From an uncultured Actinomycetes bacterium (GTDB lineage: Bacteria > Actinomycetota > Thermoleophilia > UBA2241): a DNA stretch of 62,601 bases. Positions 20,437 to 62,601 of the stretch are shown here, in pieces. Made by a program: the position numbers and the translations under genes. The stretch is taken from the NCBI GenBank assembly GCA_963767005.1, contig CAVYCN010000016.1:1-62601 (forward strand), given 5' to 3'. Position 1 is the first letter of the stretch. Each line of letters starts with the position of its first letter. The notes beneath the pieces are model-generated. The model had not been told where the DNA came from, did no database searches, and worked only from the letters and a program-made list of their open reading frames with translations.

Positions 20437-23141
20437 AGTACGACGCTCTCGTGGTGGGCAGCGGCATCGGCGGCATGGAGTCGGCCCTCAAGCTCGGCGA
20501 CATGGGCTACAAGGTGCTCGTGGTCGAGAAGGAACCGAGCGTGGGCGGCAAGATGATCCTGCTCAGCAAGGTCTTCCCCACGCTTGACTGCGCAAGCTGC
20601 ATCTCCACGCCCAAGATGGGCGCCACCATCCACCACCCCAACATCGACGTCCTGACCTACGCCGAGGTCGGCAGCATCCGCGGCGACGGCCAGGGCGGCT
20701 ACCACGCCACGGTCCACCAGAAGCCGAAGTACGTCGACGAAGCCGCCTGCACGGGCTGCCGTCAGTGCGAGATGGCCTGCAACGTGGCGGTCCCGGACGA
20801 GTTCAACGCCGACATGGTGTCGCGGCGGGCGGCCTTCATCGCCTTCCCGCAGGCGGTGCCCAAGAAGGCCGTCATCAGCCGCGAGGGCGTGTCGCCCTGC
20901 AGCTACGAGTGCCCGGCCGGCATCAAGGCGCACGGCTACGTGGCGCGCGTGCGCAGCGGCCAGTACGACGAGGCCTTCGACCTCGTGCTCGAGACGACGC
21001 CGCTCGTCGGCAGCCTGGGCCGCGCCTGCTACGCGCCCTGCGAGGAGCAGTGCACGCGCGGCGAGCTCGAAGGCCCCCTGCCCATCCGCCGGCTCAAGCG
21101 CTTCATCGCCGACCGGCGCTACGGCGGCCGGGGCGGCGACGCACGCCCGACGCCCGAGCGGCCCGAGCCGAACGGCCACCGGGTGGCCGTCGTGGGATCG
21201 GGCCCGGCCGGCCTCACCGCGGCCTGGCAGCTCGCCCGTCAGGGCTACGCCGTGAAGGTCTTCGAGGCGGCGCCGCAGCCGGGCGGCATGCTGCGCCTCG
21301 GCATCCCCGCCTACCGCCTGCCGGGCGACGTCGTCGACGACGACGTCGCCAACGTCACGGCGATCGGCGTCGAGATCGAGACCGGCGCGCGCGTCGACGA
21401 TCCGCTCGCCCTCAAGGACCGCGGCTTCGACGCCGTGCTCGTGGCGACCGGCACGCACCGGGCCGTGCAGCTGCGCGTGTCCGGCGAGGAGCTCGAGGGC
21501 GTGCAGAGCGCGCTCGCGTTCCTGGCCGACGTCAAGCTCGGCAAGCCCGTCGACGTGGCGGGCCGCAAGGTCCTCGTGGTCGGCGGCGGCAACGTGGCGA
21601 TCGACGCCGCCCGCACCGCCCGCCGTCTGGGCGCCGCCTCGGTCGACCAGGCCAGCCTCGAGTGCTGTGAAGAGATGCCGGCCCACGACTTCGAGGTCGA
21701 GGAGGCGCGCGCCGAGGGGATCACGCTGCACGACGGCTGGGGCATCGACCGCTTCATCGGCGACGGCCGCGTACAGGGCGCCGAGCTCAAGGTCTGCACC
21801 TGCGTGTTCGACCCCGAGGGGCGCTTCCACCCCGAGTACGACGAGGCGCAGCGCAAGAGCCTGGCTTGCGACCTCGTGATCGTGGCCGCCGGCATGATGG
21901 CCGACACCGACTCGTTCGGCCTCGATGCCAACGGCAACCGCACGCTGAAGGCCGACCCCGGCACGCTGCAGACGGCGGTGCCGCACGTCTTCGCCGCCGG
22001 CGACGTCGTGACGGGACCGACGATGATCACGACAGCCGTCGGCCAGGGCCGCCGCGCGGCCTTCATGATCGACCGCTACGTGCGCGGTGAGGCCCTCGAT
22101 GCCGCGGCGTTCGACGGGCCGCTCGCCGCGGTCGACAAGGAGGCCGTGCTCGCCCGGCAGGACGTCTACGACCGGCGCGAGCCGCTCGAGTCGCACGTCG
22201 CGATGAGCGCGGCGCCCGACGACTTCGCCGAGACCGAGAGCCCGCTCACCGAGGACGAAGCCTTCCTGGCCGCCGCGCGCTGTCTCGACTGCGGCGTGTG
22301 CTCGGAGTGCCACGCCTGCGTCGACGCCTGCCCGGCGGACGCCATCAAGCTCGACATGCGCGGCGAGGACATCGAGGTCGACGTCGGCGCGGTCGTCCTG
22401 GCGACCGGCTTCAAGCTCTTCCCTGCCGACGCCAAGCCGCAGTACGGCTACGGCCGTTTCAAGAACGTGATCACCGGCATGCAGATGGACCGCCTGCTCG
22501 CGCCCACGCGCCCCTACAACGCGGTGCTGCGCCCGGGCGACGGCAAGGTGCCCGACAACATCGCCTACATCATGTGCACCGGCTCGCGCGACGAGACGGT
22601 CGACAACCCGCTCTGCTCCAAGATCTGCTGCATGTACTCGGTCAAGCAGAACCAGCTCATCATGGGCGCCCTGCCGCTCGCCGACGTGACCGTCTACTAC
22701 ATCGACGTGCGCTCGGTCGGCAAGGGCTACGACGAGTTCTACCGGCAGGCCAGGGACATGGGCGCCAACTTCGTCAAGGGCCGCGTCTCGGGGGTCACCG
22801 AGACCGACGAGGGCAACCTCGTGCTGCGCTACGAGGACATCGAGAACGGCGGCGCGCTCACCGAGGCCGAGCACGACATGGTCGTGCTTGCCGTCGGCGT
22901 GCAGCCCAACCGCGAGGTCGCCGGCCTGTTCGAGGACGGCGCGCTCGGCCTCGACGACCACTTCTACGTCGGCGAGGCCGACGAGGACATCGACCCCGGC
23001 CGCACCAACCTGCCGGGCGTCTTCGTCGCCGGGTCGGCGGCGGGGGCCAAGGACATCCCCGACTCCATCCTCCACGCGGGCGCCGCGGTCGCCCAGGCCG
23101 CCGCCCATCTGGAGCGCGCGAAAGTGAAGGTGCACGCATGA
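20433..23141 (+). CDS. hdrA: HdrA-like flavoprotein with an inserted GltD-type NAD(P)H module (HdrL-like)
   Basis: GSGIGG, KVFPTLDCASC, CTGCRQC. Insert with CSYECP, GRACYAPCEEQC, GSGPAG and GGGNVA. CTGSR...CSKICC. Confidence 0.85.
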   Translation: MKYDALVVGSGIGGMESALKLGDMGYKVLVVEKEPSVGGKMILLSKVFPTLDCASCISTPKMGATIHHPNIDVLTYAEVGSIRGDGQGGYHATVHQKPKYVDEAACTGCRQCEMACNVAVPDEFNADMVSRRAAFIAFPQAVPKKAVISREGVSPCSYECPAGIKAHGYVARVRSGQYDEAFDLVLETTPLVGSLGRACYAPCEEQCTRGELEGPLPIRRLKRFIADRRYGGRGGDARPTPERPEPNGHRVAVVGSGPAGLTAAWQLARQGYAVKVFEAAPQPGGMLRLGIPAYRLPGDVVDDDVANVTAIGVEIETGARVDDPLALKDRGFDAVLVATGTHRAVQLRVSGEELEGVQSALAFLADVKLGKPVDVAGRKVLVVGGGNVAIDAARTARRLGAASVDQASLECCEEMPAHDFEVEEARAEGITLHDGWGIDRFIGDGRVQGAELKVCTCVFDPEGRFHPEYDEAQRKSLACDLVIVAAGMMADTDSFGLDANGNRTLKADPGTLQTAVPHVFAAGDVVTGPTMITTAVGQGRRAAFMIDRYVRGEALDAAAFDGPLAAVDKEAVLARQDVYDRREPLESHVAMSAAPDDFAETESPLTEDEAFLAAARCLDCGVCSECHACVDACPADAIKLDMRGEDIEVDVGAVVLATGFKLFPADAKPQYGYGRFKNVITGMQMDRLLAPTRPYNAVLRPGDGKVPDNIAYIMCTGSRDETVDNPLCSKICCMYSVKQNQLIMGALPLADVTVYYIDVRSVGKGYDEFYRQARDMGANFVKGRVSGVTETDEGNLVLRYEDIENGGALTEAEHDMVVLAVGVQPNREVAGLFEDGALGLDDHFYVGEADEDIDPGRTNLPGVFVAGSAAGAKDIPDSILHAGAAVAQAAAHLERAKVKVHA

Positions 23142-24877
23142 GCGGCCGCAGGATCGGTGTCTACGTCTGCCAGTGCGGCGGCAACATCGGCGACTACGTC
23201 GACGTCGACAAGGTCGTCGCCGCGGTGGAGCACGACCCCGACGTCGAGGTCGCTCGCAGCGCGATGTTCACCTGCTCCGACGCGACGCAGCAGGAGATCG
23301 TGCAGGACGCCCACGAGAAAGGCCTCGACGCGCTCGTCGTGGCCTCGTGCTCGCCCAAGCTCCACACGATGACGTTCCGCGACGTCGCCAGACGAGCGGG
23401 CCTGAACCCGTTCCAGTACACCCAGGTGAACATCCGCGAGCAGTGCTCGTGGACGCACACCGACGACCACGAGGGGGCGACCGAGAAGGCGCTGCGCCTC
23501 GTGCGCGCCGGCATCAACCGCACCCGGCTCACCGAACCGCTCGAGCCCATCGTCGTCGAGACCACGCCCAGGAGCCTGGTAGTGGGCGGCGGCATCGCCG
23601 GCCTGCGGGCCGCGCTCGGCCTGGCCGAGATCGGGCTCGCCGTGTTCCTCGTCGAGAAGGAGGATCGGCTCGGCGGCTGGGTGGCCGGTTTCGGCACCAT
23701 GTACCCCAACGGCCGCAACGGCGCCGAGATGATCGCGCGACTCGAAGCGGCGGTGCGCGCCCACCCGGCGATCACCGTCTTCACGAACGCCGAGCTCGTC
23801 GCCAAGGGCGGCAGCTTCGGCAACTACGAGGTGACGGTGGCGCTGCAGGGCGAGCGCCTCGAGACCGTGCGGCTCGAGGTCGGCTCGGTCATCGTGGCCA
23901 CCGGCTTCGAAGCCTACCAGCCGGCCCCGGGCGAGCTCGGCTACGGTCACGACGGCGTGGTCACCCTGCCCGAGCTCAAGCGCCTGCTCGACGCGTCGGA
24001 CGGCCCGCTCATGCGGGACGGCCGTCTGGTGCAGACGGTCGCCTACATCTACTGCGTGGGCAGCCGCCAGGACGAGGGCGCCGAGGACGCCCACACCTAC
24101 TGCTCGCGCTACTGCTGCACGGCTGCCGTCCACGCCGCGCTCGAGGCGGCCCGCAGGGGCGACCCGGCCCTGCGCCAGTACCACCTTTACCGCGACATGC
24201 GCACCTACGGCAAGTACGAGCTCCTCTGGGGCGAGTCGCGCGAGCAGGGCTCGCTCTATCTGCGCGTGCCCGACGACGAGCCGCCCACCGTCGAGGAGCT
24301 CCCCGGCGGCGGTCTCAAGGTCACGGCCCGCGACCTGCTGACCGGCGGCGCCGAGGTGGCGATACCGGCCGACCTCGTCGTGCTGGTCACCGGCATGGTG
24401 CCGCGCGACAACGACGGCCTGGTGAGCACCCTCAAGCTGCCGGTGGGTCGCGACGGCTTCTTCAACGAGATCCACCCCAAGCTGCGCCCCGTGGAGACGG
24501 TGGTCGACGGCGTGTCCATCTGCGGCGCCTGCCAGTCTCCGAAGAACTCGTCCGAGGCCGTCGCCAGCGGCCTTGCGGCCGTCACGCACAGCGGCGCCAT
24601 GCTCAAGCGCGGCTTCGCCGAGCTCGACCCGATGGTCGCGACGGTCGCGGCCGACGCCTGCACCTGGTGCGGCGCCTGCCGCGAAGCCTGCCCCTACGAC
24701 GCAGTCGCCCAGGTCGAGGCCGGCGACAGGACCGTGGCCGAGGTCGTCAAGACCGCCTGCAAGGGCTGCGGTGGCTGCGTGCCGGTCTGCCCGAGCGACG
24801 CGATCGACCTGCAGGGCTACACCGACGCGCAGGTCAGAGCGATGATCGACGGCTTGCTGGGGGTGAGCTGCGCATGA
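23138..24877 (+). CDS. hdrA: HdrA-like flavoprotein (N-terminal domain, FAD domain, C-terminal ferredoxin)
   Basis: VYVCQCGGNI, CSPKLH, NIREQCSW, GGGIAG, CVGSR..CSRYCC, E.HPKLRPVET and two CxxCxxC motifs. Confidence 0.9.
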   Translation: MSGRRIGVYVCQCGGNIGDYVDVDKVVAAVEHDPDVEVARSAMFTCSDATQQEIVQDAHEKGLDALVVASCSPKLHTMTFRDVARRAGLNPFQYTQVNIREQCSWTHTDDHEGATEKALRLVRAGINRTRLTEPLEPIVVETTPRSLVVGGGIAGLRAALGLAEIGLAVFLVEKEDRLGGWVAGFGTMYPNGRNGAEMIARLEAAVRAHPAITVFTNAELVAKGGSFGNYEVTVALQGERLETVRLEVGSVIVATGFEAYQPAPGELGYGHDGVVTLPELKRLLDASDGPLMRDGRLVQTVAYIYCVGSRQDEGAEDAHTYCSRYCCTAAVHAALEAARRGDPALRQYHLYRDMRTYGKYELLWGESREQGSLYLRVPDDEPPTVEELPGGGLKVTARDLLTGGAEVAIPADLVVLVTGMVPRDNDGLVSTLKLPVGRDGFFNEIHPKLRPVETVVDGVSICGACQSPKNSSEAVASGLAAVTHSGAMLKRGFAELDPMVATVAADACTWCGACREACPYDAVAQVEAGDRTVAEVVKTACKGCGGCVPVCPSDAIDLQGYTDAQVRAMIDGLLGVSCA

Positions 24878-25167
24878 CGACGACGAACGGCAACGGCCAC
24901 CACACCGCCGTGAGAACGGCGGCACCCGGCCAGCGCGACCCGCGCGAGATCGTGCGCGACGAGCAGGTCATGCGGCGCCGTATCCTGGCCGCCCTGGCCG
25001 CCGGCCCGCTCACCGTGCCCGAGATCGCCGCGGCACTCGAGTGCCCGGCGCACGAGGCCATGGTCTGGGTCATGGGGCTGCGCAAGTACGGCTGGGTGGC
25101 CGAGATCAAAGAGGTCACCGACGACGGCTACTTCCGCTATCGGGTGGCCGAGAGGGAGGGCTCATGA
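24874..25167 (+). CDS. Small winged-HTH protein
   Basis: ILAAL..GPLTVPEIA..L......W.MGLRKYG. ATGA coupling on both sides. Confidence 0.75.
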   Translation: MTTTNGNGHHTAVRTAAPGQRDPREIVRDEQVMRRRILAALAAGPLTVPEIAAALECPAHEAMVWVMGLRKYGWVAEIKEVTDDGYFRYRVAEREGS

Positions 25168-25469
25168 CGACGATCGTGAACCCCGGCCTCGCGTCGGAGC
25201 TCGCGCGCTCCGACGACTTCAACGCCGACGCCTGCATGAACTGCGGCGTGTGCTCGGCCATCTGCCCCATGGAGCTCGAGGTGCAGCCGCGTGTGCTGTT
25301 CCGCTACGTCCTGCTCGGCATGGAGGACCAGGTGAGAGCCGAGACCGAGCACGTCTTCTCGTGCCTGCTCTGCAAGCTCTGCGAGGAGAACTGCCCTTGG
25401 GGCGTGCGCATCGCCGACAACGTGCGCACGCTGCGTCACCACATCAACCGCACCGTCCACGGTCTCTAG
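25164..25469 (+). CDS. hdrC: HdrC-like 2x[4Fe-4S] protein
   Basis: CMNCGVCSAICP and CLLCKLCEENCP. Confidence 0.85.
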   Translation: MTTIVNPGLASELARSDDFNADACMNCGVCSAICPMELEVQPRVLFRYVLLGMEDQVRAETEHVFSCLLCKLCEENCPWGVRIADNVRTLRHHINRTVHGL

Positions 25470-51199: not shown

Positions 51200-53080
51200 A
51201 TGGAGCTCTCTCTCTACCGCAAATACCGGCCGCAGACCTTCGCCGAGATCGCCGGCCAGGACCACGTCTCGCAGACGCTGCGCAACGCCGTGAGCAGCGG
51301 CGCGGTGGCGCACGCCTACGTGTTCGCCGGCTCGCGCGGCACCGGCAAGACGAGCATGGCCAAGATCCTCGCCAAGGCGCTCAACTGCACCGGCGCCGAT
51401 CCCGAGCACCCGGTCACGGCGCCGACCGTCACGCCCTGCGGCGTGTGCGAGAGCTGCCGCGCCATCGCCGCCTCGACGGCGCTCGACGTGATCGAGATGG
51501 ACGCCGCCTCAAACCGCGGCATCGACGACATCCGCGAGCTGCGCGACAAGGTCGGCTACGCGCCGGTCCAGGGCCGCTCCAAGGTCTACATCGTAGACGA
51601 GGCCCACATGCTCACCAAGGAGGCCTTCAACGCCCTCCTCAAGACCCTCGAAGAGCCGCCGCCGCACGTCGTCTTCGTGCTCGCCACGACCGAGGTCCAC
51701 AAGATACCGGCGACCATCCTGTCGCGCTGCCAGCGCTTCGACTTTCGCCGCCCGCGCGTGCACGACATCGCCATGGTGCTGAGCCAGATCGCGGCCAGCG
51801 AGAAGATCGACGTCGACGAGCCGGCCGTGCTCGAGATCTCCCGCCACGCCGAGGGCGGCTTTCGCGATGCGATCGGCACGCTCGAGAAGCTCGCCACGTA
51901 CTTCGGCGGCGTCGCCATCACGTCGCGCGAGGTGCTCGACGTGCTCGGTGTGATCGACAGCGAGGTGCTCTTCGAGATCGTCGACATCGTGATCGAGCGC
52001 GACCCGGCCGGCGTGCTGCTCTTCGTGCAGCGCCTGGCCGAGCGCGGCACGAGCTACCCGCAGTTCATCCACGACCTGCTGCGCCATCTGCGCCAGATCT
52101 TCCTCGTCCAGTACCTGAGCGACGTGGCCGACGACCCCGCCACGCTGGTCGCCCTCTCGCAGAACCTCGAGATCGACGAGCAGCTCCTCGACCGGCTCGG
52201 CCGCCAGGCCCATCAGTTGAGCGGCCGCGAGCTGCTGCGCCTGATCGAGCTGCTGGGCAACGCCCAGACCGAGATCCGCGGCGGGCTCGACCCGCGCCTG
52301 CAGCTCGAGATGGCGCTCGTCAAGGCGGCCCGGCCCGAGGTCGACCACTCGCCCGACGCCCTCGAGGAGCGTCTGCGGCGCCTCGAATCGGGCAGCGTGC
52401 CCATGACCCGGCCGGCCGGCGGCGCCACGAGTCGCGCGGCCGAGACGCCCGCCGCGCGAGCCGGCGCCCAGCCGGCGGCCGCGGCCTCGCTCGCCCGCTC
52501 GGCGGCCGCCGCGGCGGCGCCCCCGGCGCCGGCCAAGGCGGCGGCGGCGGCCGAGACCGGCGCGACGCCGGCCGTACCCGCACCCGCTGCGGCGCAGGCC
52601 GCGGCCGCGGCGCCCGCAGCCGAGGCCGAAGGCGGCGCCGGGCCGGCCCCTGAAGCGCCGGCCGAGCAGCCGCCGGCCGGCGAGCCCGCGGCGGCGCCCG
52701 CAGCCGAGGCCGAAGGCGGCGCCGGTCGCGTCAAGCGCGCCTGGCAGCTCGTGCTGCAGCAGGCCGAGGCGCAGAGCGTGGCGCTGTTCGCCGTGCTCAA
52801 GGACGCGCGCGTGCACGCCGACGGCGAGCGCCTGATCGTGACCCTGCCCTCGAGCCTCGCCTACGGCAAGGCCTCCACCCCCGACAACCGCGAGCTGCTG
52901 GCCGCCATCATCGTGCGCACGACGGGCGACACGCCGCAGCTCGAGTACGAGCTCGCAAGCGGGCCCGACGCTCCGGCGCAGCCGCAGGCCGCGCCGTCCG
53001 ACCCGGGCCTCACCATCGCCCAACGCATCGCGCTCGCCAAGCGCGAGCTCGAGGCGAGCGACCTCCACGACGACGACTAA
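51200..53080 (+). CDS. dnaX: DNA polymerase III gamma/tau
   Basis: [25 protein letters not shown]. Confidence 0.97.
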
Positions 53081-53094
53081 GGAGAGACGCCTTC

Positions 53095-53418
53095 ATGAAC
53101 CCGCAGTACCAGAAGATGCTCCGCCAGGTCCAGGACATGCAGAAGGCCATGGCCAAGGCCCAGGAGGAGCTCGCCCAGGAGACCGTCGAAGCGAGCGCCG
53201 GGGGCGGCACGGTCACGGTCGTCGTGACGGGCAGCCTCGAGGTGCGTGAGGTGCGCATCGACCCCGCCGCCGTCGACCCCGACGACGTCGAGATGCTGCA
53301 GGACCTGGTCACCGCCGCCACCAACGAGGCGCTGCGCGCCGCTCAGGCGCTCGCCCAGCAGAAGCTGGGCGGCGCGACGTCGGGCGTCGACCTGCCCAAC
53401 ATCCCGGGCCTGTTCTAG
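53095..53418 (+). CDS. ybaB: YbaB/EbfC nucleoid-associated protein
   Basis: [17 protein letters not shown], plus synteny with dnaX and recR. Confidence 0.95.
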
Positions 53419-53717
53419 GCCGCGCACCCGCCCGACACCGGCGGCCCCGCGCCCTTTCGGCAAGCCGATCGCGGGCCGCGCCGCGGCCGCCAACCGCCCG
53501 GCGGCCATTGAAGGCCGCCACGCGGTTGGCTATCCTTGCGATAGCGGACGCTTTTGCTCCGCTAAGGTAAGCGACGGACCGCCCATGCGAGGCCTGTTGC
53601 CCACCGTGATGGGCCTCTGTAAGATTGCGTGTTGGCGCCTCCCGTGTTTTGGGCCGGCGGTGCGCCACATTGTCCCAACGACGACGGGACCGTCTGTGCT
53701 GCTAGGAGTGACCATCG

Positions 53718-54320
53718 TTGTATTCACCTGCGGTTGAGCGCCTGATCACGGAGCTGTCCAAGCTCCCCGGCATCGGCCCCCGCACAGCGCAGCGGCTCGC
53801 GTTCCACATCCTCAAGACCCGGCCCGAAGAGATCCTCCCCCTGGCCACGGCCATCACCGAGGTCAAGGAGAAGATCGGCTTCTGCAGGCGCTGCTTCAAC
53901 CTGGCCGAGGGCGAGCTCTGCACGATCTGCGCCGACGCGCGTCGTGACCAGTCGCTGCTCTGCGTGGTCGAGCAGCCGGCCGACATCATCCCGATCGAGC
54001 GCACCCGCGAGTATCGCGGCCTGTACCACGTGCTCGGCGGGGCGCTGTCGCCGCTCGACGGGGTCGACCCCGGCGACCTGCACCTGGCCGAGCTGACCGA
54101 ACGCGTCGCGGCGGGTGTCGACGAGGTCATCGTCGCCACCAACCCGACGATGACCGGCGAGGCGACGGCGCTCTACATCGCCGACCTGCTGCCGCCCGGC
54201 GTGCGCGTGTCGCGCCTGGCGAGCGGCCTGCCGGTCGGCGGCGATCTCGAGTACGCCGACGAGCTCACGCTCGGGCGGGCGTTCACGGGACGGCGCGAGA
54301 TGCGACACGACACGGCCTGA
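53718..54320 (+). CDS. recR: Recombination protein RecR
   Basis: LPGIGPRTAQR, C4 zinc finger, GEATA, LEYAD. Confidence 0.97.
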   Translation: MYSPAVERLITELSKLPGIGPRTAQRLAFHILKTRPEEILPLATAITEVKEKIGFCRRCFNLAEGELCTICADARRDQSLLCVVEQPADIIPIERTREYRGLYHVLGGALSPLDGVDPGDLHLAELTERVAAGVDEVIVATNPTMTGEATALYIADLLPPGVRVSRLASGLPVGGDLEYADELTLGRAFTGRREMRHDTA

Positions 54321-54338: not shown

Positions 54339-54941
54339 GTGAAGACGGCGACCAGCAAGGCAAAGCACGAAGTGGCTCTGACCGAGATCCGGTGGCACGG
54401 CCGCGGCGGCCAGGGCGCGGTGACCGCGGCCAAGATGGTCGCCGAGGTCGCCCTGGGCCAGCAGAAACACTTTCAGGCGTTCCCCGAGTACGGTCCCGAA
54501 CGCTCGGGCGCGCCGATCGTCGCCTTCACGCGCATCAGCGACGAGCCCATCCAGATCTTCTCGGGCGTCGAGCACCCCGGCATCGTCGCCGTGCTCGATC
54601 CGTCGCTGCTCACCATCGTCGACGTCACCAAGGGCGCGCCCGACGACGCCATCGTGCTGATCAACAGCGACCTGCCGCCGGCGGCGCTGCGCGCCAAGGC
54701 GCACATGCAGGGTCGCAAGCTCTACACGGTGGCGGCTACCAAGATCGCCGTCGAGACGATCGGCCGGGCGATCCCCAACACGCCGATGGTCGGCGCCCTG
54801 GTGCGCATCGCCGGCCTGTTCCCGCTCGAGAGCGTGGTCTCGTTCATGCGCGCCGAGTTCGGCAAGAAGTTCCCGCCCAAGGTGGTCGAGGGCAACGTGG
54901 CCGCCCTGACGCGTGCCTACGAGGAGGTCCAGGGCGAATGA
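54339..54941 (+). CDS. porC: 2-oxoacid (pyruvate):ferredoxin oxidoreductase gamma subunit
   Basis: HGRGGQG, PEYGPERSGAP, PNTPMVGA. Confidence 0.93.
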   Translation: MKTATSKAKHEVALTEIRWHGRGGQGAVTAAKMVAEVALGQQKHFQAFPEYGPERSGAPIVAFTRISDEPIQIFSGVEHPGIVAVLDPSLLTIVDVTKGAPDDAIVLINSDLPPAALRAKAHMQGRKLYTVAATKIAVETIGRAIPNTPMVGALVRIAGLFPLESVVSFMRAEFGKKFPPKVVEGNVAALTRAYEEVQGE

Positions 54942-55327
54942 CGCCACAAAAGAAGAGCGCCACTCAGAAGAAGCCCGCCGCGGCCGGCGCGCGCCCGCCG
55001 CGCGCCGCCAAGCCCAAGGCCAAGCACTGGGACATCGAGGGCATCGACGACTGGGGCGCGAGCCGCCACGAGCTCGGCGCCACCATCCCGACCGCCGGCA
55101 ACTCGGTCGAGAACGAGACCGGCGGCTGGCGCACCAACGTGCCGACCATCGACCCCGCCAAGTGCACCGGCTGCATGCTCTGCTACTTCTACTGCCCCGA
55201 CGCCTCGATCCTGATCGAGAACGACGTGGCGACGGGCGTCGATCTCAAGCACTGCAAGGGCTGCGGCATCTGTGCCGCCGAGTGCCCGGCTGGTGCGATC
55301 ACCATGAGCGTCGAGGAGAAGGAGTAG
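54938..55327 (+). CDS. porD: POR delta subunit (2x[4Fe-4S])
   Basis: TGGWR, CTGCMLC..YCPD, CKGCGICAAECP. Confidence 0.92.
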   Translation: MTPQKKSATQKKPAAAGARPPRAAKPKAKHWDIEGIDDWGASRHELGATIPTAGNSVENETGGWRTNVPTIDPAKCTGCMLCYFYCPDASILIENDVATGVDLKHCKGCGICAAECPAGAITMSVEEKE

Positions 55328-55329
55328 CC

Positions 55330-56532
55330 GTGGCTACCGTCGCACCCATCCTCGCGGTCACCGGCAACGAGGCCGTCGCCGAAGCGATGCGCCAGGTCAA
55401 CCCCGACGTCGTGGCCGCCTACCCCATCACGCCGCAGACCGAGATCGTGCAGATCTTCGCCCAGTACGTCGCCGACGGAAAGGTCGACACCGAGTTCGTC
55501 ACGGTCGAGAGCGAGCACTCGGCGATGAGCGCGGCCATCGGCTCCGCCGCCGGCGGCGCCCGCACCATGACGGCGACGAGCTCGCAGGGCCTCGCCCTCA
55601 TGTGGGAGCTCCTGCACGTCGCCTCGGGCTACCGCCTGCCGATCGTCATGGCCAACGTCAACCGTGCCCTGTCGGGGCCGATCAACATCCACTGCGATCA
55701 CTCCGACTCCATGGGCGCGCGCGACACCGGCTGGGTCCAGCTCTACGGCGAGGCCCACCAGGAGGCCTACGACAACCACCTCATGGCGGTGCGCATCGCC
55801 GAGCATCCCGACGTCCGCACGCCCGTCATGACCATGACCGACGGCTTCATCGTGAGCGGCGCCATCGGCCCGCTCCAGGAGCTCGAGACCGAGCAGGTGC
55901 AAGACTTCATCGGGCCCTTCAAGGCGATCAACCCGATGCTCGACACCGCGCACCCGGTCACGGTCGGCCCGTTCGACGGCCTGCACGGCTGGTTCTTCGA
56001 GCACAAGTCGGCCCAGCAGGCGGCCATGGACCGTGCCCTCAAGGTGGTCGACGAGATCGACCGCGAGTACGCCGCCCTGTCGGGCCGCCGCTACGACCTG
56101 CTCGACCCGTACCGCATGGACGACGCCGACTTCGCCATCGTGGTGGTCGGCTCCACGGCCGGCGCCACGCGCATGGTCGTCGACAAGCTGCGCGACCAGG
56201 GCGTGAAGGCCGGCATGATCCGCGTGCGGCTGTTCCGCCCGTTCCCCGCCGCCCAGTACGCCAAGCTGCTGAGCCGCTGCAAGGTGGTCGGCGTGCTCGA
56301 TCGCGCCGAGTCGTTCGGCGCCCAGGGCGGCCCGCTGTTCCTCGAGGTGCGCGCGGCGCTCTACGACTGCGACCCGCACCCCAAGGTGCTGCCCTTCATC
56401 TACGGCCTCGGCGGCCGCGACATCTTCCCCGACAACATCGAAGAGGCGTTCTCGGCGCTGCGCAAGGCGGGATCGGCCAAGAAGGTCGACACCCGACGGC
56501 GCTACCTCAACTTGCGCAAGGACGAGGTGTGA
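55330..56532 (+). CDS. porA: POR alpha subunit
   Basis: YPITPQT, ESEHSAMS, ATSSQG, GLGGRD. Confidence 0.95.
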   Translation: MATVAPILAVTGNEAVAEAMRQVNPDVVAAYPITPQTEIVQIFAQYVADGKVDTEFVTVESEHSAMSAAIGSAAGGARTMTATSSQGLALMWELLHVASGYRLPIVMANVNRALSGPINIHCDHSDSMGARDTGWVQLYGEAHQEAYDNHLMAVRIAEHPDVRTPVMTMTDGFIVSGAIGPLQELETEQVQDFIGPFKAINPMLDTAHPVTVGPFDGLHGWFFEHKSAQQAAMDRALKVVDEIDREYAALSGRRYDLLDPYRMDDADFAIVVVGSTAGATRMVVDKLRDQGVKAGMIRVRLFRPFPAAQYAKLLSRCKVVGVLDRAESFGAQGGPLFLEVRAALYDCDPHPKVLPFIYGLGGRDIFPDNIEEAFSALRKAGSAKKVDTRRRYLNLRKDEV

Positions 56533-56534
56533 CC

Positions 56535-57362
56535 ATGGCGATCAGGACCAACGGCAAGCCCAAGGACGCCGCGCCCGGCGCGAGCCTGTACGAGGTGATC
56601 AAGGGCATCGACTTCGAAAAGCGCGAGCTGCTCGGCAAGCCCCGCGGCCGCGGCCTCTTCGACCTCGTGCGCGACCGCGACGGCGCCCTGCGCTGCTACG
56701 CCTGCACGCTGTGCGAGCGCGCCTGTCCCACCGACTGCATCGAGATCGACTACTGCCCCGAGCACCCCGAGCTGCCGTTCGACGCGGCGGCGGCCCGCGA
56801 GGCGGCCCTGAACGCGCTGCCGCCGGGGGCGAGCTGCGGCGCGGGCTCGGCCTGCGTGATCGGCGAGGAGCCGACGCCGCGCATGCTGCTGCCCGAGATC
56901 GACATGAAGCTCTTCGACGCGGTCGCCGCCAGGCTGCGCGACGGCTCCGGCCTGATCGAGGCGCTGCACACCACCCAGGAGACCTTCGGCTGGCTGCCGC
57001 GCCGCGCCCTCGAAGAGATCGCGGCCGAGCTCAAGGTGCCGTTCTCGAAGGTCTACGGCGTGGCCAGCTTCTACAACCAGTTCCGCCTGGAGCCGGTCGG
57101 CAAGTACGTGATCAGCGTCTGCCTGGGCACGGCCTGCCACGTGGCCGGCGCGCCGCTCGTCGTCGAAGCCTTCTCGCAGGAGCTCGAGGTCGAGGTCGGC
57201 GGCACCACCCCCGACATGCTCTTCACGCTGCAGACGGTGAACTGCGTGGGCGCCTGCGCCCTGGCCCCGGCCGTACGCATCGGCGACGAGGAGACCCACG
57301 GACGCATGACCCCGGCGAGCGCCCGCAAGCTCGTCACGACGCTGCGCCGCAAGGAGGCCTGA
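56535..57362 (+). CDS. NuoE/HydC(BfuC)-like [2Fe-2S] subunit with an N-terminal half-NuoI 4Fe-4S domain
   Basis: RDRDGALRCYACTLCERACP, followed by VCLGTACH...CVGACALAP. Confidence 0.85.
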   Translation: MAIRTNGKPKDAAPGASLYEVIKGIDFEKRELLGKPRGRGLFDLVRDRDGALRCYACTLCERACPTDCIEIDYCPEHPELPFDAAAAREAALNALPPGASCGAGSACVIGEEPTPRMLLPEIDMKLFDAVAARLRDGSGLIEALHTTQETFGWLPRRALEEIAAELKVPFSKVYGVASFYNQFRLEPVGKYVISVCLGTACHVAGAPLVVEAFSQELEVEVGGTTPDMLFTLQTVNCVGACALAPAVRIGDEETHGRMTPASARKLVTTLRRKEA

Positions 57363-57363
57363 G

Positions 57364-59277
57364 GTGGCTGCCAAGACTGCCAAGACACTCACCCGGGCCA
57401 AGCGCGTCGAGGCCGCCCTGGCGGCCGCGCTACGGCCCGAGAACACGACCGGCGGCGAGGGCACGGTCAAGATCCGCGTCTGCGCCGGCACTACCTGCAA
57501 CGCCTCGGGCCGCGCCGAGCTCGTCGCGGCCCTCGCCGCCGAGCTCGAGCGGCGCGGCCTGACCGACACGGTCACCGTCGTCGAGACCGGCTGCCACGGC
57601 CTGTGCCAGGAGGGCCCGATCGCCGTCGTGCACCCGAAGGGCATCTTCTACCCGCGCCTCAAGCCGCGCGACATGGCGGCGATCGTCGAGACGAGCGTCG
57701 TCGGCGACGGCGTCGTGGAGCGTCTGCTCTACCACGACCCGGCGACCGACCAGCCGATCGAGCTCGAGAGCGAGGTGCCGTTCTACGCCCGCCAGCACCG
57801 CGTGGCGCGCGCCATCAACGGCTTCATCGACCCAACCTCGATCGACGACTACCTGGCGCGCGGCGGCTACGCGGCGCTTGCCAAGGTGCTCGCCGCCGAC
57901 GACCCCGTGGCCGTCATCGACGAGGTCGAGCAGGCCGGCCTGCGCGGCCGCGGCGGCGCCGGCTTCCCGGCCGGCAAGAAGTGGCGCTACTGCCGCGAGA
58001 ACCCGGGCGACAAGCACTACATCATCTGCAACGGCGACGAGGGCGACCCCGGCGCCTTCATGGATCGCGCCGTGCTCGAGGACAACCCGCACTCGGTGAT
58101 CGAGGGCATGCTGATCGCGGCCTTCGCGATGAGCTCCGACGAGGGCTACATCTACGTGCGTCACGAGTACCCGCTGGCCGTCGCCCGGCTGCGTCACGCC
58201 CTCGAGCAGGCGCGCGAGCGCGGCCTGCTCGGCAGTGACATCCTGAACACCGGCTGGGACTTCGACCTGCGCATCAACCAGGGCGCGGGCGCCTTCGTCT
58301 GCGGCGAGTCCACGGCCCTCACGGCGAGCATCGAGGGCAACCGTGGCATGCCGCGCGGCAAGCACATCCGCACGGTCGCCCACGGCCTCTACCAGCAGCC
58401 CACCAGCCTGAACAACGTCGAGACCTACGCCACTGTGCCCTGGATCGTGAACCACGGCGCCAAGGCCTTCGCGGCGATGGGCACCGCGACCTCGAAGGGC
58501 ACCAAGATCTTCTCGCTCACCGGCAAGGTGCGAAACTCCGGCCTGGTCGAGGTGCCGATGGGCACCACCCTGCGCGAGGTGATCTTCGACATCGGCGGCG
58601 GCATGCTGCCCGGCCGCGAGTTCAAGGCCGTGCAGCTCGGCGGCCCCTCGGGCGGCTGCCTGCCGGCCGAGCTGCTCGATACGCCGATCGACTTCGAGAG
58701 CCTCACTGCCTACGGCTCGATGATGGGCTCGGGCGGCATGGTCGTGACCGACGACTCCACCTGCATGGTCGACTTCGCCAAGTACTTCTTCGCCTTCACG
58801 GCGCAGGAGTCGTGCGGCAAGTGCGTGCCCTGCCGCGTGGGCACCCAGCGCATGCTCGAGATCCTCGAGCGCATCTGCGCCGGCGAGGGCACGCTCGACG
58901 ACCTCGACCGTCTCGAGCAGCTCTCCGAGGACGTGATCGAGGGCTCGCTCTGCCAGCTCGGCGGCAGCGCCCCCAACCCGGTGCTCACCACGCTGCGCTA
59001 CTTCCGCGACGAGTACGTCGCCCACGTCGTCGACAAGCGCTGCCCGGCCAGGGTCTGCCGGCCGCTCATCCGCTACACCGTGAACGACAACTGCACGGGC
59101 TGCTACGCCTGCACCATGGCCTGCCCCACCAAGGCGGTCAAGGGCGAGCGCAAGAAGCTCCAGAAGATCGACCAGAGACTCTGTACCAAGTGCGACACCT
59201 GTCGCCAGGTCTGCAACTTCGACGCCATCACGGTCGAGACCGGCGTGCTGGCCACCGTGGGAGGGAGGTCGAAATGA
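57364..59277 (+). CDS. NuoF/HydB(BfuB)-like FMN/NAD subunit
   Basis: N-terminal [2Fe-2S], GLRGRGGAGFP, DEGDPGAFMD, FVCGES, GGPSGGC, ESCGKC.PCR, C-terminal 2x[4Fe-4S]. Confidence 0.92.
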   Translation: MAAKTAKTLTRAKRVEAALAAALRPENTTGGEGTVKIRVCAGTTCNASGRAELVAALAAELERRGLTDTVTVVETGCHGLCQEGPIAVVHPKGIFYPRLKPRDMAAIVETSVVGDGVVERLLYHDPATDQPIELESEVPFYARQHRVARAINGFIDPTSIDDYLARGGYAALAKVLAADDPVAVIDEVEQAGLRGRGGAGFPAGKKWRYCRENPGDKHYIICNGDEGDPGAFMDRAVLEDNPHSVIEGMLIAAFAMSSDEGYIYVRHEYPLAVARLRHALEQARERGLLGSDILNTGWDFDLRINQGAGAFVCGESTALTASIEGNRGMPRGKHIRTVAHGLYQQPTSLNNVETYATVPWIVNHGAKAFAAMGTATSKGTKIFSLTGKVRNSGLVEVPMGTTLREVIFDIGGGMLPGREFKAVQLGGPSGGCLPAELLDTPIDFESLTAYGSMMGSGGMVVTDDSTCMVDFAKYFFAFTAQESCGKCVPCRVGTQRMLEILERICAGEGTLDDLDRLEQLSEDVIEGSLCQLGGSAPNPVLTTLRYFRDEYVAHVVDKRCPARVCRPLIRYTVNDNCTGCYACTMACPTKAVKGERKKLQKIDQRLCTKCDTCRQVCNFDAITVETGVLATVGGRSK

Positions 59278-62200
59278 GTCCCACCGCGACCGACACCCAA
59301 GTCAAGCTCACCATCAACGGCACGCTGGTCACCGCCACCAAGGGCGAGACCGTCCTGCAGGCGGCCAAGCGGGCCGGTATCGAGATCCCGGCACTCTGCA
59401 ACGTCGACGGCATGGCTCCCTGGGGCGCCTGCCGGCTCTGCCTGATCGAGATCGAGGGCTGGTCCAAGCTGCAGGCGGCCTGCACCACCTGGGTCGACAA
59501 CGGCCTCGTGGTGCGCACCGAGACGCCACGCGTGCGGGCCAAGCGCGAGAGCTACCTCAAGATGTACCTGTCCGACCACGACTCGTACTGCGAGGCGCCC
59601 TGCAGCAACGCCTGCCCCACGCACATCGACATCCCGGCGTTCCTCGAGCGCATCGCCGACGGCGACTTCGCCGCCGCCTCGGCGCTCGTCGCCGACGACC
59701 TGCCCTTCGCCGGCGTGCTGGGCCGCGTCTGCCCGCGCTACTGCGAGCCCGAGTGCCGCCGCGGCCAGGTCGACGACCCGATCGCGATCTGCGCCCTGCA
59801 CCGCGCCGCCGGCGACAAGAGCCCGGCCAAGCTCATGGCCGGCCCGTCCACCGGCAAGCGCGTCGCCGTGATCGGCGGCGGCCCGGCCGGCCTGTCGGCC
59901 GCCTGGTATCTCACGCGCGCCGGCCACGCCGTGACCGTCTACGACCGCAACGACAAGCCGGGCGGCATGCTGCGCTACAGCGTGCCGCCGTTCCGGCTGC
60001 CCGAGGCCGTGCTCGACCGTGAGCTCGAGCCCCTGTGGGACGCCGGCGTGCGCTTCGTCGACGGCGTCGGCCTGGGCAGCGAGGTCACGCTCGAGGGCCT
60101 GCTGCAGGCCGGCATGGACGCCGTCTTTGTGGGCGTCGGCGCCTGGCGCGGCCGCAGCGCCCGCCTGGCGGGCGCCAAGGCCGCGCTCGACGGCCTCGAG
60201 TTCCTGCGTACCCTGCACGAGGGCCGCAAGCCGCGTCTGGGCAAGGCGGTCGTCGTGATCGGCGACGGCCAGACGGCCCTCGACGCGGCGCGCAGCGCCG
60301 TGCGTCTCGGCGCCGCGAGCGTCACCGTGGTGGCGCGCCACGCGGCCGACGCCCTGCCGGCCGGCACCCGCGACGTCGCGGCCGCCACCGACGAAGGCGT
60401 CGCGTTCGTCTACTCGGCCGAGGCCCGCAAGGTCGCGACCGACAAGGCCGGCAAGAGCACCGGCGTCGAGTGCGTCGCCGTGAGCGCCGGCGCCGACGGC
60501 AAGCTGCACCCCGAGCGGGGCTCGGCCTTCGTCGTGCCGGCCACGAGCGTGATCGTGGCCCACGACTACACCCCCGACGTGGGCGACTCCGACGAGGAGC
60601 TCGGCTTCACGCCCTGGGGCACCCTCGAAGCCGACCCGTTCACCGGCCGCACGCAGACCCCCGGCGTCTTCGCCGGCGGCGACGCCGTGTCGGCCGCCAA
60701 GTCGGCGATCCACGCGGTCGCGGCCGGCAAGCGCGCCGCCTTTGCGATCGACGCCTGGCTCAGGGGCGACGACCTCGACGAGCTCGAAGCCGACCTCGCC
60801 CTCTACGCCGGCCTGCCCTACCTCGAGCAGCTCCACGACGCCGGCAGGCTCTCAGAGGTCGGCCGCCGGCTCGTCGAACGCTCGCCCGTCTGGCTCAAGA
60901 TGGGCTCGGCCGCCGCGGCCACGCCGCGCGTCAAGATGCCGGCCGCGCCGGTCGCCAAGCGCACGGCCGGCTTCGACGAGGTCGAGAAGGGCTTCTCGGC
61001 CGCTCAGGCCAAGGCCGAGGCGGCCCGCTGCCTGCAGTGCGTCTGCCCGTCGAACGGTGACTGCGAGCTGCAGCGCCTGGGCGTCGAGTACGACGTGACC
61101 GACAACGACCTCGTCGTGAGCGGCGCCCTCGTGCGCCAGGTCGAGGCGGCTCACGAGCACCCCTTCATCTACCGCGACATGGACCGCTGCATCGCCTGCG
61201 GGCGCTGCGTACGGGTCTGCCGCGACGTCGCCGGGCCGGCCTGCTACGACTTCTCGGGCCGCGGCTTCGCGATCCGCGTCGACACGCCCTACGGCGAGCC
61301 CCTGCAGCTTGCCGACTGCATCACCTGCGGGCGCTGCGTGACCGTCTGCCCGACCGGCGCGCTCACCATGAACGAGCGCGAGCTGCGCTCGTTTCGCAAC
61401 GACGAGTCGCGCTGCATCATGTGCCACGAGTGCGTCGACGTCTGCCCGGCCGACGCCATCAAGGAGACCAACGTCTTCGAGCAGGCCCGCGACCGCTGGC
61501 ACGAGCTCGTGACCAAGGGCTCCGGCCTGGCCGGCGGCCATCGCATGTGCGCCGGCTGCGGCGCGCCGATCGTGGTGCGCCAGGTGCTCATGGGCACCGA
61601 GGACCCGGTCGTCGTGGCGGCCGCCACCGGCTGCCTCGAGGTCTCGACCACGATCTACCCCTACACCTCGTGGACCGGCAGCTACATCCACACCGCCTTC
61701 GAGAACGCCGCCGCCACCCTGTCCGGCGTCGAGACGGCCTTCCGCTCGCTCAAGAAGCAGGGCAAGCTCGAAGACAACGTCAAGTTCATCGCCTTCGGCG
61801 GCGACGGCGGCACCTACGACATCGGCCTGCAGTCGCTGTCGGGCGCCATGGAGCGTGGCCACAACATGCTCTACGTGTGCTACGACAACGGCGCCTACAT
61901 GAACACCGGCTTCCAGCGCTCCGGCGCCACGCCGGTGGGCGCCTGGACGACGACGAGCCCGGTCGGCAAGGCAGCCGAGGGCAAGATCCAGAACCGCAAG
62001 GACCTGACCGACATCATGATCGCCCACGGCCTGCGCTACGTGGCCCAGGCCTCGCCGCACGACCCGCGCGACCTCGTGCGCAAGGCGGCGCGCGCCCTGG
62101 CCACCGAAGGCCCGTCGTTCCTCAACGTCATCGCCCCCTGCCCGCGTGGCTGGCGGGCCGACGGCGCCGAGACGATCGAGCTCGCCCGCGAGGCGGTCAA

Positions 62201-62465
62201 CACCTGCTACTGGCCGCTGTTCGAGGTCGAAGACGGGCAGTACAAGCTCACCTACCGCCCGCGCGAGAAGCAGCCGATCATCCCCTGGCTCAAGAAGCAG
62301 GGCCGCTTCGCGCACCTCTTCAAGCCCGCGGGCGCGGAGCAGCTCGAGCGCCTGCAGGACTGGGTCGACTACGAGTGGGAGCGCCTCCTGCGCAAGTGCG
62401 GCGAGCCCGCCCAGACCGTCTGGGAGGCGGAGGCGCAGGGCACCTGCCTGCCGGCGGCCGAGTAA
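59274..62465 (+). CDS. Fusion: HydA/NuoG N-terminal [2Fe-2S], GltD/Nfn-like FAD module, ferredoxin domains and PorB (TPP-binding beta subunit)
   Basis: IPALC..GACRLC..ACT; CSNACP, GRVCPRYCE.EC, GGGPAG; RCLQC.C....CEL; CIACGRCVRVC; then GHRMCAGC, TGCLEV, AFENAAA, GGDGGTYDIG, YDNGAYMNTG, PCPRGW. One uninterrupted frame. Confidence 0.9.
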   Translation: MSPTATDTQVKLTINGTLVTATKGETVLQAAKRAGIEIPALCNVDGMAPWGACRLCLIEIEGWSKLQAACTTWVDNGLVVRTETPRVRAKRESYLKMYLSDHDSYCEAPCSNACPTHIDIPAFLERIADGDFAAASALVADDLPFAGVLGRVCPRYCEPECRRGQVDDPIAICALHRAAGDKSPAKLMAGPSTGKRVAVIGGGPAGLSAAWYLTRAGHAVTVYDRNDKPGGMLRYSVPPFRLPEAVLDRELEPLWDAGVRFVDGVGLGSEVTLEGLLQAGMDAVFVGVGAWRGRSARLAGAKAALDGLEFLRTLHEGRKPRLGKAVVVIGDGQTALDAARSAVRLGAASVTVVARHAADALPAGTRDVAAATDEGVAFVYSAEARKVATDKAGKSTGVECVAVSAGADGKLHPERGSAFVVPATSVIVAHDYTPDVGDSDEELGFTPWGTLEADPFTGRTQTPGVFAGGDAVSAAKSAIHAVAAGKRAAFAIDAWLRGDDLDELEADLALYAGLPYLEQLHDAGRLSEVGRRLVERSPVWLKMGSAAAATPRVKMPAAPVAKRTAGFDEVEKGFSAAQAKAEAARCLQCVCPSNGDCELQRLGVEYDVTDNDLVVSGALVRQVEAAHEHPFIYRDMDRCIACGRCVRVCRDVAGPACYDFSGRGFAIRVDTPYGEPLQLADCITCGRCVTVCPTGALTMNERELRSFRNDESRCIMCHECVDVCPADAIKETNVFEQARDRWHELVTKGSGLAGGHRMCAGCGAPIVVRQVLMGTEDPVVVAAATGCLEVSTTIYPYTSWTGSYIHTAFENAAATLSGVETAFRSLKKQGKLEDNVKFIAFGGDGGTYDIGLQSLSGAMERGHNMLYVCYDNGAYMNTGFQRSGATPVGAWTTTSPVGKAAEGKIQNRKDLTDIMIAHGLRYVAQASPHDPRDLVRKAARALATEGPSFLNVIAPCPRGWRADGAETIELAREAVNTCYWPLFEVEDGQYKLTYRPREKQPIIPWLKKQGRFAHLFKPAGAEQLERLQDWVDYEWERLLRKCGEPAQTVWEAEAQGTCLPAAE

Positions 62466-62487
62466 CGCGAGCGTAACTGCCCACGCG

Positions 62488-62526
62488 AGGGCGGCGGCGG
62501 CGCCGACGCGCCGCCGCCGCCCTTTT
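62488..62526 (+). terminator. Rho-independent terminator
   Basis: 16-bp GC stem plus TTTT closing the por/bfu operon. Confidence 0.75.
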
Positions 62527-62601
62527 CGTTACCGCAGAGTAGACGAGCGCCGGTGCACGGAGCTCCGCCCGCCGACGCTGCTACACTGAACGGCGGCTAC
62601 C

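Follow-up and report, generated by a model that had tools for sequence, protein, structure and literature searches.

A conserved BfuA-NuoI-PorB fusion ties pyruvate oxidoreductase genes to a predicted electron-bifurcating module in uncultured Thermoleophilia

Genes for pyruvate oxidoreductase (POR) have been predicted from genome surveys to cluster with those of the electron-bifurcating flavoprotein module BfuABC, and whether such neighbours make one enzyme or two is left open in the available text of PMC9304861. Here we describe a locus at which the two are joined in one polypeptide. It lies near the end of a 62,601-nt stretch of DNA (contig C16, the window) from the genome of an uncultured Actinomycetes bacterium (Thermoleophilia, UBA2241; GCA_963767005.1), an assembly of 3.44 Mb with a completeness score of 100%. 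Six genes, all on the forward strand, follow one another as porC-porD-porA-bfuC-bfuB and then a gene for a 1063-aa fusion protein, separated by 1-2-nt gaps or sharing 4-nt overlaps (Table 1). Gene calls and profile matches bore out what a first-pass annotation, made from the sequence alone, had read here, namely that nuoE-like and nuoF-like genes stand after porA in place of porB, and that the genes are tightly coupled.

Table 1. Features of the locus. Positions are those of the window; "listed fusions" are the 105 full-length fusions defined in the text.
Feature	Position	Strand	Basis and remarks
porC, gamma subunit (coenzyme A-binding domain III), 200 aa	54339..54941	+	TIGR02175 198 bits (cut-off 81), PF01558
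porD, delta subunit with 2x[4Fe-4S], 129 aa	54938..55327	+	TIGR02179 92 bits (cut-off 60), two ferredoxin motifs
porA, alpha subunit, 400 aa	55330..56532	+	NF040682 PorA 477 bits, cut-off 550 not reached
bfuC fusion, 275 aa: NuoI N-half, then NuoE/HydC [2Fe-2S] subunit	56535..57362	+	Profile matches and alignment
N-terminal half of split NuoI	56616..56753	+	TIGR01971 positions 19-63 of 121; C54, C57, C60, C64 invariant in 20/20
BfuC thioredoxin-like domain, cluster C1 (C196, C201, C237, C241)	56937..57344	+	PF01257, residues 135-270; invariant in 20/20
bfuB, 637 aa	57364..59277	+	Eight Bfu-family B chains are the best solved matches, E 5e-234 to 5e-184
BfuB altered nucleotide site, S316 and R336	58309..58371	+	Alignment
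1063-aa fusion: BfuA (NfnA/StnC-type), NuoI C-half, PorB	59274..62465	+	No internal stop
A1 [2Fe-2S] domain (C42, C53, C56, C70)	59295..59525	+	PF13510; invariant in 105/105 listed fusions
GltD/NfnL-like insert	59589..60773	+	FAD fold and two [4Fe-4S] sites retained; the A7 cluster ligand is H176 instead of Lys
Decayed NADP(H)-binding domain	60159..60569	+	Glycine loop contains D331; Arg pair (355-356) and motif at 429-432 both lost
A2/A4 2x[4Fe-4S] domain	61146..61373	+	PF22117; the BfuA moiety is most conserved here (mean pairwise identity 85%)
NuoI C-half (C714, C717, C720, C724)	61368..61517	+	TIGR01971 positions 68-117 of 121; invariant in 105/105 listed fusions
PorB domain	61518..62465	+	TPP/Mg motif 842-872, N877, proximal-cluster candidates C759, C762, C787, C956; invariant
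Terminator-like hairpin with U-rich tail	62487..62530	+	RNA fold z = -5.2, 0/200 shuffles as stable

The PorB subunit proved to be the C-terminal part of the fusion protein, as had been proposed with a start at about 61515: the NCBIfam PorB model spans residues 746-1038, which puts the start near 61510. Ahead of it, Pfam detected Fer2_4 (residues 8-84), Fer4_20 (106-183), Pyr_redox_2 (196-485), Fer4_Nqo3 (630-698) and a lone Fer4 (710-730), with TPP_enzyme_C following at 785-952, in agreement with the HydA/NuoG-like [2Fe-2S], GltD-type flavoprotein and ferredoxin domains named in the annotation. Residues 1-740 matched NfnA and StnC chains best in both sequence and fold (Foldseek gave the same NfnA matches), and a GltD/NfnL domain for flavin adenine dinucleotide (FAD) is inserted in the BfuA part as it is in the solved NfnA and StnC, so that the general statement that Nfn-type A subunits carry GltD modules applies here as well. 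These alignments stop at residue 698-742, ahead of the FdhF-like domain of NfnA/StnC, and no H-cluster or molybdopterin family was among the best 25 of 27 Pfam matches to the fusion, which fits the annotation's view that neither domain is present. An AlphaFold2 model of the fusion as a single chain reached a predicted template modelling score of 0.58, with high predicted local distance difference test (pLDDT) values in the GltD domain and values below 50 over residues 623-761; it yielded no arrangement of the domains.

The junction region, used as query in a protein search, drew 593 matches, of which 120 were listed; 105 of these are at least 1000 aa long and represent full-length fusion clusters, and all counts out of 105 refer to them. 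All BfuA cluster cysteines are invariant in this set, as are, by alignment, the A3 ligands H102, C106, C591 and C597. Two further cysteines, C173 and C657, are invariant and have no assigned role. Among 36 loci examined, we found 21 other distinct full-length fusion open reading frames (ORFs) once duplicates and contig-edge fragments were dropped, and three genomes with frameshifted copies (L005, L016/L088 and L022), the site differing in each. In a screen of 301 genomes from the class, 71 carried the junction in a single frame with at least 76% identity; every one of them belongs to family f1 or f4, and plain PorB occurs in family f6 and part of f4. Phylum-wide the junction was present in 3 of 401 genomes, all from the same two families. 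Named records with the full fusion are metagenome-assembled genomes of Actinomycetota, mostly Thermoleophilia, and the gene order and a position beside dnaX-ybaB-recR were the same in every locus long enough to show them. Gap-free contigs of relatives span the junction in one DNA run and in one RNA run, the contigs of the latter not showing a single transcript; no sequencing run contained half of the words, and the small shares found are no evidence of habitat. The 21 distinct ORFs, the 105 listed clusters, the 71 genomes and the gap-free contigs rule out an assembly artefact or read-through. A stop or frameshift ahead of the PorB domain, which the annotation had asked to be looked for, is absent from the window's copy, and the junction is uninterrupted in those 71 genomes. 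One relative, G123, carries two full copies of the fused operon on one contig (L148, L149). Searches of the literature for this architecture, covering openly available text rather than subscription papers or figures, gave no description, consistent with the proposal that the covalent three-way fusion is new. It is a conserved architecture, without description in the literature searched, and a variant of the predicted Por-Bfu class. Because PorB is covalently fused to BfuA, it is very likely that the products of the Por and Bfu genes form a single complex, as the first-pass annotation had suggested.

The core to which PorB is thus tied has the features of the BfuABC family: cluster C1 is on BfuC, A1 and A2 are on BfuA, and BfuB matches eight Bfu-family B chains ahead of any NuoF. 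Pfam assigns BfuB a flavin mononucleotide (FMN) domain, SLBB, NADH_4Fe-4S and a C-terminal 2x[4Fe-4S] domain. With residue numbers counted by hand from the alignment, its ligands are C40/45/77/81 for B5, C484/487/490/530 for B1, C467/H554/C560/C565 for B2 (Zn) and C577-C617 for B3-B4, and its bifurcating-type residues are A231-F232-M233 and F311. Both sets match those in Supplementary Figs 9 and 10 of PMC9304861, so that every B-subunit motif claimed for the bifurcating type was indeed found; the ligands are conserved in 18 aligned copies, except for one internal deletion and one frameshifted C terminus. B1-FMN-C1 is described as the minimal bifurcation site (PMC11829005), and according to the available text of PMC9304861 the B3/B4, B5 and B2 ligands have no counterpart in non-bifurcating homologues.

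These ligands bear on an alternative in which the six genes make one complex that does not obligately bifurcate, being either a pyruvate:NAD(P)+ oxidoreductase or a POR that leaks through PorD beside a loosely coupled Bfu diaphorase. Such an enzyme is conceivable, as pyruvate (-500 mV) is able to reduce either acceptor alone, both PorD clusters are kept, a genome without pyruvate dehydrogenase (PDH) E1 would benefit from a route that leads directly to NAD(P), and PadI, of the phenylglyoxylate:NAD+ oxidoreductase, also has ferredoxin motifs before its beta domain, as judged by model match. However, the B3/B4, B5 and B2 ligands, missing in non-bifurcating homologues, are kept in nearly all copies, and the Wor-Bfu enzyme described below requires both acceptors under the same thermodynamics; we regard non-obligate bifurcation as unlikely, though a serious contender. 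Other observations on Bfu-type proteins concern the remainder of this genome, where two more BfuB paralogues have canonical NAD sites (L133 and L134, on contigs C3 and C6), one of them beside an NfnAB-like pair and the other without an adjoining BfuA, and where pieces of a HydABC-like FeFe hydrogenase lie at the end of contig C1 and the start of C18.

On the POR side, the domains and motifs of a four-subunit pyruvate:ferredoxin oxidoreductase (PFOR) are present: the alpha, beta, gamma and delta domains, the thiamine pyrophosphate (TPP) motif and three [4Fe-4S] motif sets. PorC and PorD pass subfamily cut-offs, and PorA and PorB score highest with pyruvate synthase models, below the equivalog cut-offs (for PorB, NF008819 at 363 bits, cut-off 405). 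For both subunits these models outrank those for 2-oxoisovalerate (VOR), oxalate and phenylglyoxylate oxidoreductases, and the best solved matches are the alpha (E 1e-86) and beta (E 5e-81) subunits of M. acetivorans POR (9BT4). PorA has a Thr at the position of an Arg in oxalate oxidoreductase, and the TPP-motif residues and four candidate proximal-cluster cysteines of PorB are invariant in all 105 listed fusions. The same wiring might serve a branched-chain or other 2-oxoacid instead, given the missed cut-offs, the high scores of the VOR models as well (alpha 332, beta 300 bits) and the broad specificity common among 2-oxoacid:ferredoxin oxidoreductases (OFORs); yet POR models and the solved M. 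acetivorans POR come out on top for alpha and beta, the porCDAB order is that of four-subunit PFORs, and the genome has separate KOR- and IOR-like genes, all of which makes another substrate scarcely probable. A profile search of the genome found five POR_N genes, the window's included, no PDH E1 beyond one weak match (E 1e-3; pyruvate formate-lyase was outside the search), no acetyl-CoA synthase match and no RnfC above cut-off. In a genome scored as 100% complete, the lack of notable PDH E1, acetyl-CoA synthase and Rnf matches makes a catabolic role of the POR plausible, and the absence of an acetyl-CoA synthase match led us to reject an autotrophic Wood-Ljungdahl context. Pyruvate oxidation is the likely reaction of the POR part. 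A gene for a 2x[4Fe-4S] ferredoxin lies on contig C7 (G000:C7:147703-147879, minus strand). A second OFOR cluster on contig C19 (L135, G000:C19:106500-110600) has porC-like, GltD-like, porA-like and porB-like genes, with alpha and beta 35-39% identical to the window's and no delta gene detected.

Extra cysteine motifs on BfuC, in a 120-aa N-terminal extension of this nuoE-like gene product, and on the fusion just before PorB match the two halves of the complex I subunit NuoI. BfuC residues 28-73 correspond to positions 19-63 of the NuoI model and fusion residues 699-748 to positions 68-117, the halves being complementary. The domain derives from NuoI without being a NuoI as defined, which has both ferredoxin motifs in a single chain docked on NuoB/D/H, for the halves are on two proteins and no membrane arm is encoded at the por locus. 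Four more BfuC cysteines that follow the NuoI half (C68, C74, C101 and C107; window 56754-56860) are invariant and may form an extra metal site.

A paralogous cassette, with a BfuB 68% identical, occupies the place of nuoI in a nuo operon on contig C8 and has the same two halves. At this site (L093:6172-11287; G000:C8:118171-123286) the Bfu/Nfn cassette lies inside nuoI, whose halves are fused to NuoE and to a NuoG/GltD subunit; no other nuoI was found in the operon, which is a candidate ferredoxin plus NAD(P)H confurcating proton pump. Of 20 loci fetched from relatives, 18 shared this cassette-in-nuoI layout, as did three f6 genomes without the fusion; in one relative, G037, porCDAB stands unfused at the corresponding place beside dnaX-ybaB-recR. 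Moreover, 20 genomes of one genus gave a second match, and all nine of those fetched were orphan ORFs in which both NuoI halves are rejoined directly onto PorB; no porA, porC or porD was found in the 11-13 kb fetched around each, and the full junction is likewise found in 14 of the 20 genomes. That the halves make up a single 2x[4Fe-4S] domain is best supported by these naturally rejoined genes. The orphan genes (L139-L147; e.g., L141:8395-9825) have a longer acidic C terminus, and their product is a possible swap-in beta subunit.

A structure-based pair test of the NuoI halves gave weak support, scoring 0.36 against 0.00 for the best control, with runs agreeing in at least 57% of contacts and partner pLDDT of 51-58. 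Of 157 solved pairs 116 attained its pass mark, as did 2 of 215 mismatched ones; 18 of these solved pairs and both mismatches did so at scores of 0.60 or below, and likeness to solved NuoI may itself explain the pass. In a quick BfuB tree, which was midpoint-rooted, had long branches and served for grouping only, all 23 POR-linked BfuB grouped with one complex I copy (Shimodaira-Hasegawa approximate likelihood ratio support 100). As to complex I itself, in family f6 (L101-L103) the cassette has decayed in the reverse manner: its NuoI N-half is on a shortened NuoE/F without B3-B5, the NADP site of its GltD subunit is intact, and this complex I is probably NADPH-driven. In three relatives (G011, G004 and G023; L121, L118 and L107) the complex I copy of BfuB is decayed and the POR-linked copy intact. 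The genome under study also has a second, conventional complex I with nuoI intact (G000:C8:44000-55000) beside an apparent cytochrome oxidase subunit, a pairing that suggests a facultative lifestyle.

The GltD arm had been suggested as a possible link of the complex to NADP(H), a suggestion that was not supported. Three solved NfnA/StnC chains have a glycine triplet and a Tyr-Arg-Arg motif in the second Rossmann fold. Among the listed fusions the triplet is kept in 7 of 105, the Arg pair in one and both in none, compared with 51, 48 and 48 of 51 GltD-like controls. Conservation is reversed too: in the fusions, whose least conserved part is the GltD domain, the NADP domain stands at 44% and the FAD parts at 61-65%, whereas in the controls the figures are 55% and 44-54%. 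Close complex I paralogues keep the motifs, and the loss is therefore specific. The replacement of the A7 Lys ligand by His (103 of 105) was rejected as a sign of decay, as the same His is found beside an intact NADP site in three complex I paralogues. A working Nfn-type site in this domain, which would link pyruvate, NADPH, NADH and ferredoxin, could draw on the FAD glycine motif (kept in 104 of 105), on an Arg or Lys at the position of StnC R239 (105 of 105), on the invariant cluster cysteines and on a fold modelled with high pLDDT. Set against the motif counts, the reversed conservation and the paralogues that retain the motifs, it is very improbable. The retained features point instead to an arm that is probably folded and loaded, and that is probably no longer an NADPH port.

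If NADP is used, BfuB is the more likely site. The equivalent of one of the two relevant BfuB positions, a Glu in NuoF, governs the choice between NADH and NADPH. BfuB has S316 and R336, and 22 of 23 POR-linked copies share this pair, where C. saccharolyticus NfnB contacts NADH through Glu274 and Phe294 (PMC11829005). T. kivui HydB has the same Ser/Arg pair at both nucleotide-contact positions, and T. kivui HydABC uses NADP+ (20.8 U/mg) and not NAD+ (<0.01) (PMC8578170); HytB of C. autoethanogenum, whose Hyt enzyme is called NADP-dependent, has Ser at the S316 position. We rejected Ser316 alone as proof of NADP use, since the NAD-using WorB has the same Ser. The two sites appear to change together: among complex I paralogues (23 loci, 22 scorable, with A-side motifs scored by alignment), 6 of the 7 that have a Ser/Arg B site have lost the A-side NADP motifs, and all 15 with a canonical or decayed B site retain the glycine triplet. 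As the six motif-loss paralogues are one clade, this amounts to about two concordant events with two exceptions (complex I of G015, POR of G018). The pattern suggests that NADP binding moved from the FAD (GltD) site to the FMN (BfuB) site, and NADP+ may be slightly ahead of NAD+ as the acceptor at BfuB. Residues 300-339 are 95% identical between the BfuB paralogues of this genome, versus 45-58% in N-terminal segments, which is consistent with gene conversion of this stretch.

Taken together, these features lead us to favour, as probable though well short of certain, one six-gene complex that would oxidize pyruvate to acetyl-CoA and CO2 and bifurcate the electrons to ferredoxin and to NAD+ or NADP+. 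Electrons would pass from TPP through the proximal cluster of PorB, the PorD clusters, the rebuilt NuoI dicluster, A4, A2 and A1 to B1-FMN-C1, where a hydride would go to NAD(P)+ at the FMN and low-potential electrons would leave through B3/B4 to ferredoxin. The FAD arm (A3-A6-A7-FAD) would probably be a structural remnant or an electron store. From 2 pyruvate, 2 CoA, NAD(P)+ and 2 one-electron ferredoxin equivalents, the complex would yield 2 acetyl-CoA, 2 CO2, NAD(P)H and 2 reduced ferredoxin equivalents. As for its origin, the cassette within complex I nuoI may have been duplicated into porCDAB between porA and porB, so that the split NuoI, by which it is docked on complex I, would now attach it to POR.

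By hand arithmetic, oxidation of 2 pyruvate would release ~42 kJ with NAD or ~23 kJ with NADP, and with ferredoxin alone about zero, so that a bifurcating complex would draw pyruvate oxidation onward in the face of a ferredoxin pool already reduced. The same figures bear on the reverse reaction, in which NAD(P)H and reduced ferredoxin would be confurcated to carboxylate acetyl-CoA to pyruvate. This direction was first proposed for the Dehalococcoides Por-Bfu (PMC9304861), and PFORs are reversible, but the mixed donor (on average -390 mV with NAD, -440 mV with NADP) is less reducing than ferredoxin alone (-500 mV), synthesis would cost ~+42 or ~+23 kJ, respectively, per 2 pyruvate (hand arithmetic), and the genome has no acetyl-CoA synthase gene. 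Confurcating synthesis being less favourable than synthesis with ferredoxin alone, oxidation is the likelier direction, and we consider the reductive role highly unlikely.

Several points weigh against the bifurcating pyruvate oxidoreductase that we favour. PorD normally gives electrons to free ferredoxin, and this exit is not evidently blocked; the single-chain model does not resolve the junction geometry, its pLDDT being below 50 across residues 623-761; and the missed POR equivalog cut-offs leave the substrate unfixed, in a genome with four other POR_N genes. With respect to NADP, WorB, which uses NAD, shares the Ser (with His at the second position), and the POR-linked copy in G018 has a canonical NAD site. 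Lastly, it is gene context that argues for the direction of duplication, which the midpoint-rooted tree does not show. A fuller version of the favoured scheme would be an NADP+-specific bifurcating pyruvate oxidoreductase that arose by transplanting the whole complex I input module, is docked by a two-polypeptide NuoI dicluster and has its NADP port moved from FAD to FMN, and in which, in some relatives, an orphan NuoI-PorB swaps in to switch between bifurcating and ferredoxin-only modes; as a whole it is a tentative proposal, and on balance doubtful.

The annotation had closed the operon with a single terminator, and a hairpin with a 17-bp stem (62487-62524) does stand 3' of the fusion's stop codon, with a fold more stable than its shuffled versions (Table 1), but it was not listed by a consensus terminator scan. 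A promoter scan found no sigma-70 promoter. Directly upstream of porC are dnaX-ybaB-recR (window 51200-54320), with recR apparently starting at TTG; recR ends 18 nt before porC, and the transcript may therefore start upstream, with the por genes perhaps co-transcribed with recR. Elsewhere in the window (20892-25466), a further GltD-like flavoprotein region is followed by ferredoxin-motif ORFs resembling an HdrA/HdrC-type cluster.

One of the nearest known systems is the Por-Bfu class, predicted and uncharacterised in the available text of PMC9304861, which describes a seven-subunit Type 2 enzyme of Dehalococcoides mccartyi and 12 sequences in clades 35/44/45, and which bears out the annotation's statement that such clusters have been predicted. 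Both have POR subunits clustered with the full BfuBC core, all four POR subunit types being encoded here; a Ser occupies the S316 position in the B subunit from Dehalococcoides as well, and coupled reduction of NAD+ and ferredoxin has been proposed for Por-Bfu (PMC9304861). Por-Bfu, however, is reported from Chloroflexi and Proteobacteria with its four POR subunits separate and a small BfuA devoid of A3 and A5 (PMC9304861), whereas at this locus PorB is joined to a BfuA of NfnA type in which A3 is retained, the genes number six rather than seven and a split NuoI forms the link. With Nfn-Bfu, StnABC and NfnABC (9BOV, 8OH5, 9N5U) the locus shares the [2Fe-2S] domain, the GltD insert that splits the A3 ligands, A2/A4 and the BfuBC core; it differs in the lost NADP motifs, the His for Lys at A7 and the half NuoI plus PorB that replace the FdhF-like domain. 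The A4 branch leads nowhere in Stn, whereas in the fusion A4 is predicted to be the main input.

The closest functional model is WorABCSL of Acetomicrobium mobile (9MQX), which bifurcates from a donor of equally low potential that feeds the Bfu core via A4, and which needs both NAD+ and ferredoxin; its tungsten aldehyde oxidoreductase is on separate subunits, and it has no fusion, GltD insert or NuoI halves. The four-subunit PFOR of M. acetivorans (9BT4) shares the porC-D-A-B order and the TPP and cluster motifs, and the subunit types covered in the available text of PMC13768988 include no flavoprotein module. For complex I, a Bfu module in place of NuoEFG (Nuo-Bfu) has been predicted, and the available text of PMC9304861 describes no split NuoI, GltD insert or reuse on POR. 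T. kivui HydABC (8A6T) has the same Ser/Arg in its B subunit but is a hydrogenase, and the role of the pair in specificity is putative.

The conserved covalent fusion is the strongest genetic answer to the question of whether por and bfu genes make one enzyme or two, and the six-gene locus offers a defined target for a first Por-Bfu assay. It is also an example of the transfer of a module between a respiratory complex and a soluble enzyme through a split NuoI adaptor, and the loss of the FAD-side NADP site, paired with the change on the FMN side, is a candidate two-residue rule for telling NAD from NADP use in HydB/BfuB proteins. If the complex is NADP-linked, it would generate both NADPH and reduced ferredoxin directly from pyruvate, which would be useful for models of carbon flow through the actinobacteria of anoxic peat and sediment, and for metabolic engineering.

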